Assembly (NCBI GenBank): GCA_964618625.1
Contig: CAZUBI010000001.1
Coordinates: forward strand, 1,940-65,939
Length of the DNA stretch: 64,000 nt
DNA from: an uncultured Candidatus Saccharibacteria bacterium
Lineage (GTDB): Bacteria; Patescibacteriota; Minisyncoccia; UBA6257
Direction of reading: 5' to 3'
Shown: positions 49,185 to 51,831 of the stretch, in pieces
How the letters are laid out: the number at the start of each line of letters is the position of its first letter
How positions within the stretch are numbered: the first letter of the stretch is position 1
The notes under the pieces: model-generated
What the model was told of the DNA's origin: nothing
Databases searched by the model: none
The model's input: the letters and a program-made list of their open reading frames with translations, nothing else
Translations under genes and position numbers: made by a program

Positions 49185-49249
49185 CTGCTATAGGGACAGC
49201 AGCATTTTTTTACTAATAAAATATGGAGGTTGAACCTCCATATTTTTTG
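49185..49249. terminator. two hairpin terminators between convergent genes; the second is bidirectional
   Basis: CTGCTATAGGGACAGCAGCATTTTTTT and ATATGGAGGTTGAACCTCCATATTTTTTG. Confidence 0.6.
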
Positions 49250-49271: not shown

Positions 49272-49754
49272 TTAGTCCTTTTTTTCTTCTGTTTCGGAAA
49301 TATTAATATTTTTTGCTCGTTCTAATAAATCTTTTCTATCTGGATCATCAGTTAACGGACCATCTTCTCGTAGTAAATTTAATATTGTCCCGATTTCGCG
49401 TTTAGAAATTTCTTCTTTGCTTGTTTCTTCTATTCTATCCAATCCTTTTATAATATTTAGTTTAATAGGATTTTCTGCTTCCTTAGTTCTTTCTTTTCTA
49501 ATTTCCTTGTCATGAGCTTCAGTTTTTTTTATTTCTTCTGGCGCTATTAGATTTAATCTTTCTATCATTTTTTCTCTGTCAGGATCATTTGCTAAAGGGC
49601 CATTTTCTCGTAATAGATTTAACATGCTATTAACCCCTGATTGACTAATTTCTCCTTTCTTAGCCATTTCTTCTAACCTATCTAGTCCACTTATAATATT
49701 TTGTTTTATAACAGTTTCATTATTTTCTGACTTTGATTCAAATGAATTAAACAT
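49272..49754 (-). CDS. hypothetical protein with an internal tandem duplication of about 67 aa
   Basis: The repeats contain LNLLRENGPLANDPDREKMIERL and LNLLREDGPLTDDPDRKDLLERA. Confidence 0.45.
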   Translation of the reverse strand: MFNSFESKSENNETVIKQNIISGLDRLEEMAKKGEISQSGVNSMLNLLRENGPLANDPDREKMIERLNLIAPEEIKKTEAHDKEIRKERTKEAENPIKLNIIKGLDRIEETSKEEISKREIGTILNLLREDGPLTDDPDRKDLLERAKNINISETEEKKD

Positions 49755-49904
49755 ATTTTTAGTAATTTATTAGATTTTTAAAACAACTTTTATTTATTAT
49801 AATATACTTTCTTAATAATTGTCAATTTTGAGAACAAGGAGTTAATTTGGTTTAATTTTAGATATAAGAAATATAAAGGATATGGGAAGATTGAGGGAGA
49901 GACT

Positions 49905-49978
49905 TGACCCCCACACCATAACGAGCACTGAGTGTCTTTGGCACTAAGATACGAAGTATGTGCTCATTTGGTGTAGAG
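49905..49978. other. GC-rich imperfect long hairpin
   Basis: CACACCATAACGAGCAC...GTGCTCATTTGGTGT arms with an inner AGTG/CACT stem. Function and strand unknown. Confidence 0.25.
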
Positions 49979-49979
49979 C

Positions 49980-50076
49980 TTGACAAATTATTTTTGTTTG
50001 CTATAATGAAAATGCTGTTGTCTAGAGATATTAAATAGCTTGCTATCTAATTTCGAAAGGCGACAGCATTTTTTTA
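49980..50076 (+). ncRNA. family-4 element copy 1: a sigma70 promoter directly driving a ~60-nt hairpin RNA that ends in a T-run
   Basis: TTGACA-17-TATAAT, then AATGCTGTTGTCT...inner AGATA/TATCT stem...AGGCGACAGCATTTTTTT. Confidence 0.4.
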
Positions 50077-50096
50077 TCATTAAAAAAACAATTAAT

Positions 50097-50125
50097 TTGG
50101 CTTAATTTATATAATGTTATATAAT
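50097..50125 (+). promoter_or_regulatory. promoter of the GGDEF gene
   Basis: TTGGCT-17-TATAAT. Related in sequence to the promoter at 51474. Confidence 0.4.
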
Positions 50126-50143
50126 TAAAGTAAATATATTTTT

Positions 50144-50707
50144 ATGGATTCTAAAGTTAAAATTCTAAAAGAAGAAAATCAGAGACTAAAGAAGAAAATT
50201 GAAAGATTAAAGAAATTAACCACGGTTGATTTTTTAACCAAGCTTTATAATCGTCGAGCTTTTTCTCAATTCTTCAAAACTGTTTACGAAGAACTAAAAT
50301 GGGCAACTAAACATAAAACTCGACGTTCTCAAAAGTCTCAATTTTCACTGATAATAATAGATATTGACGACTTTAAAAAATTTAATGATAAATTTGGTCA
50401 TCTTTATGGTGATAAAATTCTGAAAAAGGTCGCTAAATTTCTTAAAGATTCTGTTAGGGACTTTGATATTGTTGCCCGCTGGGGAGGAGAAGAATTCGCT
50501 ATAATTCTTAAAGGTGTAAATTTATCCCAAGCCAAAAAAAGAGCTAAAATTATATTAGAAAGAAGCAGGGAATATCTTCCCGTTACTTTTAGCATTGGTG
50601 TTACTCAATGCAATCCAAAATATTCTTTAAGGCAAATTTTCGAAAAAACAGATAAAGCTTTGATAAAAGCGAAGAAACAAGGCAAAAATCAAATTGTGGT
50701 TGGATAA
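50144..50707 (+). CDS. diguanylate cyclase (GGDEF domain) with an N-terminal coiled coil
   Basis: RWGGEEF active-site motif, and DFLTKLYNRRAF preceding the GGDEF core. Confidence 0.8.
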   Translation: MDSKVKILKEENQRLKKKIERLKKLTTVDFLTKLYNRRAFSQFFKTVYEELKWATKHKTRRSQKSQFSLIIIDIDDFKKFNDKFGHLYGDKILKKVAKFLKDSVRDFDIVARWGGEEFAIILKGVNLSQAKKRAKIILERSREYLPVTFSIGVTQCNPKYSLRQIFEKTDKALIKAKKQGKNQIVVG

Positions 50708-50719
50708 TACAAATAACAC

Positions 50720-50810
50720 TTGACAAACTATTTTTCTTTGCTATAATGAAAGTGCTGTTGTCTTGAGGTATATAGCTTGCTATATATTAATGGGCAGCAG
50801 CATTTTTTTT
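50720..50810 (+). ncRNA. family-4 element copy 2: promoter driving a ~60-nt hairpin RNA
   Basis: TTGACA-17-TATAAT, then AGTGCTGTTGTCT...inner TATATAGC/GCTATATA stem...GGGCAGCAGCATTTTTTTT. The inner stem differs from copy 1 but still pairs. Confidence 0.4.
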
Positions 50811-50848
50811 GATAAAATATAGTATATAATTAGAATAACGAAAGTATT

Positions 50849-51400
50849 ATGTATATTGAAGAAATTAAAAATTGGTTTAGCCAAAATCCTGGATTAGTGC
50901 AATTCATACAATTTATTGCGCCAATTATTATTTCTCTATTATCAATCCGTTTTATCAAAAACAAAAGGCGGGAGCCTGTCTTAATTTTAGATGTCAAAAG
51001 CATAAAAGAATATTCCCAAAATAAGCAACAAAAAATTAAAGAAAATGGTTACCTAATTGCTGATTCTAATTATTTTTTACAGATTCGTAATGAAGGCGAT
51101 GACATTGCTTTAAATACATATGTTGAGAGCGATAATTTTAAAATTGTAAAATATCAGAATCACCAGATTGGTTTACAAGACGAGCTATCTATAGAAATTG
51201 TAAAAAAATCTGATAATGAAATAAAGAATTTAAAGGAACTAAATGGGGGAGTTTTAAAGATTTATTGCGAGACAATAGAAGGAATAGGATTTTATTTTAA
51301 ATATCAAATAATAGATATTGAAGAAAAGAGAGTGCGATTTATGTCCAAGGGTTATGGAAAAATTAAACAAAATAAAGGCAATTTCCGTCTTGATCATTAA
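50849..51400 (+). CDS. hypothetical protein with an N-terminal TM helix
   Basis: 183-aa ORF. Confidence 0.4.
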   Translation: MYIEEIKNWFSQNPGLVQFIQFIAPIIISLLSIRFIKNKRREPVLILDVKSIKEYSQNKQQKIKENGYLIADSNYFLQIRNEGDDIALNTYVESDNFKIVKYQNHQIGLQDELSIEIVKKSDNEIKNLKELNGGVLKIYCETIEGIGFYFKYQIIDIEEKRVRFMSKGYGKIKQNKGNFRLDH

Positions 51401-51473: not shown

Positions 51474-51502
51474 TTGACTTAAATTATGTAATGTTATATA
51501 AT
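51474..51502 (+). promoter_or_regulatory. sigma70-like promoter
   Basis: TTGACT-17-TATAAT. Shares ...TTAAATTATGTAATGTTATATAATTA with the promoter at 50097. Confidence 0.45.
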
Positions 51503-51561
51503 TAGGATAGTAGAATGTCAGTCCTTTGATAATTAAAAATAAAAGGAAAAGGAGAGTGAAA

Positions 51562-51831
51562 ATGATGAGAATGTGGAGACCTGATTTAGTTTTACTGCAT
51601 TATTTAAATGGAAAGGATAAATTGACGCGCAAATCAGTTCTATCTATAGAAATGGAGGAAAAAAGGGTAAAAAGCAATGAAATTATATTAATTGTATTAA
51701 TCACAATATTTATATTATTCTTTTTTGCTCACAGCATAGAAATTCTTCTTGGTTTATTAGCTTTTGGATTGACTATTGGAATATTTGGGTTGATTAAAGA
51801 TAAAGATTATAAAGAAAGGAGAAGGACATGA
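51562..51831 (+). CDS. small membrane protein (start at the SD-preceded ATGATG)
   Basis: AAGGAGAGTGAAA-ATG. The C-terminal half is strongly hydrophobic. Confidence 0.4.
   Translation: MMRMWRPDLVLLHYLNGKDKLTRKSVLSIEMEEKRVKSNEIILIVLITIFILFFFAHSIEILLGLLAFGLTIGIFGLIKDKDYKERRRT

Follow-up and report, generated by a model that had tools for sequence, protein, structure and literature searches.

Stand-alone, terminator-ended small RNA genes are intergenic and clade-conserved, and each pairs a sigma-70 promoter with a short structured RNA that ends in a Rho-independent terminator. The merRNA of Bdellovibrio, a massively expressed orphan c-di-GMP riboswitch RNA, is likewise a short terminated transcript that is the sole product of a strong promoter, in a setting of c-di-GMP genes. 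Type III toxin-antitoxin loci of the ToxIN kind present the order promoter, structured RNA, terminator and gene for a protein of ~170-190 aa, while repeats of the Correia, NEMIS and MITE-like types are dispersed units of ~100 bp that carry a promoter and a terminator, yield a hairpin transcript (a possible RNase III substrate), lie at rearrangement junctions and break assemblies. These features are shared by an element found in two full copies in a 64,000-nt stretch of DNA from an uncultured Candidatus Saccharibacteria bacterium, the whole of which is here called the window.

The element nevertheless departs from each of these systems. Unlike stand-alone small RNA genes, it specifies a single hairpin without a single-stranded seed, is multi-copy with two paralogue types, has a consensus promoter with a conserved spacer, and belongs to no Rfam family. 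Unlike merRNA, it has no similarity to GEMM-I or GEMM-II, and its conserved unpaired nucleotides are too few for a ligand pocket. The tandem RNA repeats of type III toxin-antitoxin systems are absent from the element, no endoribonuclease of the ToxN, AbiQ, CptN or TenpN type is encoded downstream of the window copies, and PADLOC returned no toxin match there; unlike the genes of such systems, those downstream of the element have their own promoters, and they encode a GGDEF cyclase, a membrane beta-sandwich protein and others. Compared with Correia- and NEMIS-type repeats, the promoter reads into its own hairpin instead of out of the unit, copies per genome appear to be few, and the paralogue types predate the species. 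Given a promoter conserved down to its spacer, a transcript that comprises only a hairpin, and the existence of gene-less copies, a stand-alone small RNA gene family is the most economical reading. The ~97-bp unit is most likely a new family of this kind, belonging to a narrow clade of CPR/Patescibacteria, and we put at about 55% the probability that each copy is an independent transcription unit for a structurally constrained small non-coding RNA, a judgement made from sequence.

The window is AT-rich (~31% GC), and both of its full copies are co-oriented on the forward strand. Copy 1, designated type A, comprises a promoter P1 at 49980-50011 (-35 hexamer TTGACA at 49980-49985, TG at 49999-50000, -10 hexamer TATAAT at 50002-50007) and an RNA at 50012-50075, of which 50012-50069 form a 58-nt hairpin and 50069-50075 a U run. 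Copy 2, type B, has P1 at 50720-50751 (TTGACA at 50720-50725, a 16-nt spacer with TG, TATAAT at 50742-50747) and an RNA at 50752-50810, with a 52-nt hairpin at 50752-50803 and a U run at 50803-50810. The first-pass annotation, which had proposed two copies here, was correct in this (49980-50075 and 50720-50810; the pattern is matched twice, with no match expected), and also in calling the hexamers perfect, but the spacing it gave as 17 nt is 16. A promoter scan gave 12/12 hexamer matches with TG before the -10 at 49980-50007 and 50720-50747; the spacer ends in TGC before TATAAT in both copies, and both thus have the arrangement of sigma-70 extended -10 promoters (hexamers 16-18 nt apart, with TG). 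By regex, 12/12 promoters number only three in the 64-kb window, and the extended -10 is confined to the two belonging to the element; a 32-nt promoter pattern has two exact matches in the same 64 kb against zero expected. The discriminator is a purine-rich GAAA in both copies, the hairpin begins 4 nt after the -10, and the RNA 5' end reads AUG or GUG.

Each predicted transcript folds, as had been proposed for it, into a single long hairpin closed by a U run: a 12-bp outer stem, a 3x3 internal loop, an inner stem, a G-CUUG-C cap and 7-8 U. A CUUG tetraloop closed by G-C is a stable folding motif. The internal loop of copy 1 is purine, and the inner stem of copy 2 has 9 bp. Folding energies are -22.0 kcal/mol for copy 1 (z -4.7) and -24.8 kcal/mol for copy 2 (z -5.7), with 0/200 shuffles as stable in either case. 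In all variants a stable hairpin (-22 to -27 kcal/mol) stands directly before 6-9 U, the sequence arrangement of an intrinsic terminator. Covariance-model scores are 89.8 bits on the forward and 48.4 bits on the reverse strand for copy 1, and 74.3 and 24.7 bits for copy 2; the model recovers these two full copies only. A decayed third element lies at 49185-49211 (+), consisting of the 3' half and U run (CTGCTATAGGGACAGCAGCATTTTTTT) with no promoter; it gives no covariance-model match at E<=10, and occupies a position orthologous to that of intact orphan copies at L148:5416 and L159:192, behind each of which come a bidirectional terminator of the same kind and a convergent gene.

Additional copies were sought by several routes that differ in how far their results bear on conservation. 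A pattern scan of genome contigs was loose and returned mostly chance matches; every true copy among them carried the promoter of the element, and among the matches listed true copies occurred in at least four MAGs labelled Candidatus Saccharibacteria and at least one unclassified MAG. A stricter scan of metagenomes gave 23 loci, with the promoter in 23/23. Since these two pattern scans fixed part of the sequence, and so inflated apparent conservation at those columns, conservation there counts only for copies found through proteins or the covariance model. Retrieval through the neighbouring 183-aa protein is independent of the RNA sequence, and found the element 5' of that gene in further genomes; the covariance model detected additional copies in the flanks of these protein-led loci. 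In total, about 26 distinct versions of promoter plus RNA, with 20 distinct RNAs, were obtained from related MAGs and metagenomes, at least 2-3 copies occurring per MAG or contig (two full copies and one remnant in the 64 kb of the window). A tally of 26 distinct units, made with a regex that itself requires TTGACA, gave a 16-nt spacer in 26/26 and TG in 25/26; their -10 hexamers read TATAAT, TACAAT or TATACT. Homology ends sharply, ~40 nt upstream of the RNA start (-40) on one side and at the U run on the other.

Both hairpin types, the 58-nt A and the 52-nt B, are represented among the ~26 versions. Type B is kept in L145-147, L155-158, L161 and L162, and L052 carries a form intermediate between A and B. 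The window, L161 and L165 each carry both types on one contig, which marks the two window copies as old paralogues; moreover, A and B within one genome differ more than same-type copies do across species, which argues for old paralogues under purifying selection rather than recent bursts. The pair in the window is, judged from sequence, no recent local duplication but one member of each of two paralogue types. At the clade level, distant cyclase homologues (58-72% identity) lack the element even with filters off (best score 16.5 bits), so that the RNA family appears young and confined to a narrow clade; the label Saccharibacteria derives from MAG titles, and some relatives of neighbour proteins are labelled Paceibacterota or Portnoybacteria.

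Evidence that the transcript itself is constrained comes first from rates of change. In seven orthologous loci 5' of the 183-aa gene, identity is 94.9% in the RNA, 86% in the promoter, 84% over the whole gene, 79.5% in the spacer 3' of the U run, and 64.9% at four-fold degenerate sites of the adjacent gene; in pairs retrieved by protein alone, the RNA is 88-98% identical against 46-70% at four-fold sites. The pattern of change also respects the fold. Across the 20 distinct RNAs, 11 of the 12 outer-helix pairs are variable, with 99.6% of cells paired, and over all pairs 94% of cells are paired, compared with 28-67% when partner columns are slid. The same architecture was found on folding in 16/16 of the distinct RNAs first collected, and RNAalifold recovers it independently. 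Model scores across copies are 72-90 bits forward and 21-48 bits reverse, and the abundance of G-U pairs means that the structure works on the plus strand only.

The initial claim of covariation between the two window copies was overstated: their outer stems differ by one-sided changes only (U-A to U-G, A-U to G-U), and their inner stems by a symmetric 3-nt indel on either side. Two-sided covariation emerges only when homologues are added, and not from the window copies alone. The wider search and covariation statistics that had been proposed as a check found, in the alignment of 20 distinct RNAs, two-sided changes at five pairs, values that 0/500 shuffles reach; in the outer helix these include C4-G to U-A, U8-G to C-G and C11-G to U-A. 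L123 begins with a partial copy that reads GAGCUUGCUC in place of the UAGCUUGCUA of the others, which would be one further two-sided change, U25-A34 to G-C. As the 5' arm is almost all G and U, any 3'-arm transition keeps pairing automatically; the one-sided stem changes that make up most of the variation are hence weak evidence individually, and the covariation signal in the alignment is real but modest. To judge from these sequences, the argument is carried by the two-sided changes, the symmetric indels and the absence of 3'-arm transversions. Conservation extends to about three unpaired nucleotides, G14, A15 and A45 of the purine loop; this 3x3 internal loop is rich in purines and likely contains a tandem G.A/A.R motif. 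Overall, pairs are kept and conservation exceeds that at neutral sites, as expected of a structured non-coding RNA under selection, and the suggestion of a functional small RNA in the first-pass annotation thus finds support in cross-species conservation, strand-specific structure-preserving changes and gene-less copies.

Constraint on the 5' arm could also be ascribed to a leaderless micro-ORF (MLLS..., 4-8 codons from the conserved RUG) that serves as a leader peptide or micropeptide. An AUG or GUG stands 4 nt after the -10 region in every copy, and the 5' arm of the first 16 variants differs only at position 1 (A/G) and position 4 (C/U), in both cases synonymously. Peptide length is variable, however: many type B copies stop at a UGA in codon 5, whereas the frame runs for 7-8 codons elsewhere, and we judge this reading very improbable. 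At L148:5416, a copy found without a fixed pattern, the peptide would become MLSF while all base pairs are kept (U8-G to C-G, C11-G to U-A), and the micro-ORF was rejected.

The genes that follow the element are diverse. They encode the GGDEF cyclase, the 183-aa membrane protein, an MscS-like channel, an HD protein followed by RsmI, a double-HTH protein and small secreted proteins, and most have their own promoter. This diversity bears on the view, raised in the first-pass annotation, that the element is an attenuator or riboregulator, that is, a riboswitch or protein-controlled leader in which the downstream gene is expressed from P1 and the hairpin ends transcription only under some conditions. 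The layout of promoter, structured RNA, terminator and gene does resemble that of leaders and of type III toxin-antitoxin loci, there is an association with c-di-GMP and envelope genes, and in distant relatives the mini-cyclase lies in a tRNA cluster, where it is probably expressed by read-through from an RNA-gene promoter. Yet transcription begins right at the hairpin base, which leaves no room for an antiterminator alternative; the downstream genes are functionally unrelated and mostly have their own promoters; about three conserved loop nucleotides are few for a riboswitch, and no Rfam riboswitch model matches even at E<=10. The element precedes the cyclase orthologues of the window, L154, L148 and L026, but is missing from those of L023, L161 and L123. 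At L159 and L148:5416 intact units lie between convergent genes, with a separate bidirectional terminator after each, at the antiporter/HD locus that it shares with L156, the copy of L164 points the other way, and L026b has a second terminator between the element and the next promoter. Such varied, gene-less and inverted contexts argue against a leader, attenuator or riboswitch, which we consider improbable.

The tRNA clusters are of interest in themselves. In L170 (4908-5714), L171, L172 (5567-5653) and L173 (4793-4882), the cyclase, 58-72% identical, is located inside a cluster with the order tRNA-Ser(GCU), cyclase, tRNA-Ser(UGA), two small proteins, tRNA-Arg and RecG; tRNA genes end 3-8 nt from the cyclase coding sequence, and it is therefore probably co-transcribed with the tRNAs there. 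A separate observation concerns L144 (reverse strand, ~1905-2110), L147 (4255-4450) and L145 (~370-520), in which a second strong promoter, CTTGACT-17-TATAAT with TG, lies ~40 nt 3' of the element and precedes a conserved, GC-richer RNA of ~170 nt that has its own terminator and stands ahead of the double-HTH gene; from its sequence, this is probably another unannotated structured RNA or leader.

In the window, copy 1 is followed by a gene (50144-50707, +) for a 187-aa minimal diguanylate cyclase composed of a short coiled coil and a GGDEF domain (Pfam GGDEF 9.7e-40, TIGR00254 8.5e-42). A 21-nt tandem repeat of 2.3 copies at 50168-50214 encodes the Lys/Glu-rich N-terminal coiled coil of this protein. 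Copy 2 is followed by a gene (50849-51400, +) for a 183-aa protein that combines an N-terminal membrane helix with a beta-sandwich (AlphaFold pLDDT 78), for which a fold search gave just weak archaellin- or pilin-like matches; its family comprises only 37 homologous clusters, all at least 61% identical, is clade-restricted and co-occurs with the element. Next comes the gene for an 88-aa acidic protein (51565-51831, +), which is conserved as a partner of the 183-aa gene and is served by a promoter of its own (51474-51502). PADLOC and NCBIfam searches of the neighbour proteins found nothing beyond the GGDEF domain. On the other side of the element, the minus strand at 49272-49754 encodes a 160-aa acidic protein with two internal repeats (IIxGLDRxEE...LNLLRExGPLxxDPDR) and no family match; its gene has a perfect 12/12 promoter at 49825-49796, and a shorter homologue is present at the same position in L148.

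Second promoters do follow each copy, as the first-pass annotation had it, but the claim that they are related fails: the two are dissimilar to one another and to P1. Ahead of the GGDEF gene is TTGGCT-17-TATAAT (50097-50125, +), which recurs at 51474-51504 with 90% identity and is also found in other genomes; a TTGGCT-type motif lies 5' of the 183-aa gene in L127 and L148 as well. Ahead of the 183-aa gene in the window is a promoter-like site, TTGATA-16-TAGAAT (50809-50836, +), which abuts the U run of copy 2 and is kept in at least six orthologous loci (L023, L114, L125, L129, L161, L167). The motif TTAATTTGGCTTAAYTTATATAATRTTATATAAT, with two overlapping -10 boxes, was observed in the window at 50092-50127, 51474-51504 and 49842-49858, and before the 183-aa gene in L127 and L148; its recurrence suggests a shared regulator of several cluster genes.

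These second promoters are the basis of a reading in cis, according to which P1 and its immediate terminator insulate the downstream unit and occlude or feed the second promoter, P2, with the RNA a by-product. In ~9 of 11 distinct contexts the element is co-oriented just 5' of another promoter and gene, the P2 -35 abuts the U run in the 183-aa context (conserved in at least six loci), and the cassettes (GGDEF; 183 aa plus 85 aa) have moved among genomes accompanied by an element 5' of them. That RNA polymerase can diffuse in one dimension after termination and re-initiate at promoters close by has been documented in vitro (PMC6978380, PMC11364550), which makes the feeding of P2 biochemically plausible. 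On the other hand, the distance from U run to second promoter varies from 0 to ~46 nt with no fixed register, which speaks against interference or a roadblock; intact copies exist without a co-oriented downstream promoter (L159, L148:5416, L164); and co-orientation is expected by chance, because most genes of the window are on one strand. Moreover, a terminator role leaves the conservation of G14, A15 and A45, and an unusually long hairpin of 21-24 base pairs, unexplained. We regard the cis reading as unlikely, and as less likely again a purpose-built cis module that insulates or feeds a weaker promoter or, equally, a clade-specific protein-binding hairpin tied to the cyclase/membrane-protein cassette.

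The distribution of copies raises the further possibility of a duplicative or mobile promoter-terminator cassette, whose RNA would have no function and whose conservation would stem from recent spread and gene conversion. The sharp homology borders are in keeping with this, as are the several copies per genome, the assemblies that break inside them (L001-L003, L123), the exchange of A and B for one another at orthologous loci, the one inverted copy, the decayed copy in the window, and the insertion of L026b 5' of a region that already had its terminator and promoter. A gene set (the 187-aa cyclase, the 183-aa protein and the acidic protein of ~85 aa) accompanies the element, which is not bound to it; the order of these genes varies between genomes, with elements at the junctions. 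Against such a cassette, terminal inverted repeats are lacking (the left end, CTTGACA, is unrelated to the right end, CATTTTTTT), no target-site duplications occur in the flanks, no transposase or integrase is found among the neighbour genes, and copy number is low, at two in 64 kb. Phage and plasmid collections gave no match to the element, viral contigs gave 13 chance matches and no real copies, and A and B are old paralogues kept by purifying selection. Of the rivals, the cis device and, somewhat less probable, a mobile cassette without RNA function are the two that we take seriously. Independent short-read contigs do begin inside the element, L001-L003 at the equivalent of window position 50025 and L123/L124 in the apical loop, and the element is an assembly-breaking repeat in these communities.

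The DNA just 5' of copy 1 shows its own signs of disturbance. Positions 49851-49880 hold a 30-nt fragment of a second gene of the 183-aa family, 83-93% identical to about codons 44-53 of orthologues and fused to a relic of a TTGGYTTAATT promoter; the following ~100 nt (49880-49980) are unusually GC-rich for the genome, form a long hairpin (minus strand, z -3.2) and match nothing elsewhere. The appearance of 49851-49980 is that of a scar left by deletion or rearrangement, which may include foreign DNA.

Comparison with known RNA families and motifs gave no identity for the transcript. At the gathering threshold, Rfam 15 found two tRNAs only in the whole window, and at E<=10 nothing relevant on the element, the best match being to a pre-miRNA model, which scored 24 bits where its threshold is 73. 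Identity as an SRP RNA, a 6S RNA or a CRISPR repeat was dismissed, with no Rfam support and no arrays; a k-turn was dismissed because the internal loop, as read from sequence, is a symmetric 3x3 and misfits; and an integron attC because the arms, RTGYTGTTGTCT and AGRCRRCARCAT, misfit the core sites RYYYAAC...GTTRRRY on both strands, with no integrase among the neighbours. A search of the window for complementary, seed-pairing target sites found chance-level 10-11-mers only, none at start codons.

For a stand-alone small RNA gene, events would proceed as follows. From the extended -10 sigma-70 promoter, transcription would start 4-7 nt after the -10 and produce a transcript of ~58-65 nt, essentially one very stable hairpin with a 12-bp G/U-rich outer stem and a 9-12-bp inner stem, whose base, together with the U run, would act as the RNA's own intrinsic terminator. 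The RNA may then accumulate and act in trans. Nearly all of its nucleotides are paired, and the apical loop is a folding tetraloop rather than a seed, which favours recognition by protein over pairing with mRNA; we infer protein binding as the most likely mode of action, in which the helix and purine loop would be recognised for sequestration, as a decoy or as an RNase III-type substrate. As a side effect the hairpin could terminate the gene upstream, and the type B hairpin of copy 2, judged by position, probably also ends the GGDEF transcript. Promoter-less hairpins occur after a 101-aa gene at L168:1634 and L169:1400; together with the decayed copy, they indicate that not every copy is essential and that the hairpin can serve simply as a terminator.

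In the literature searched for small RNAs of Saccharibacteria and Patescibacteria nothing relevant was found, and no description of this RNA or of any such small RNA in CPR/Patescibacteria. The family is distinguished by its consensus promoter, its two old paralogue types and an RNA that is 95% identical where synonymous sites are 65% identical. Because the promoter should work in E. coli, the element would be easy to test, and its inclusion in RNA family libraries would allow it to be annotated instead of overlooked. In these genomes it interrupts short-read assemblies and flags the junctions of rearrangements; and in CPR/Patescibacteria, whose tiny genomes can ill afford useless DNA, the unit has been retained in several copies.
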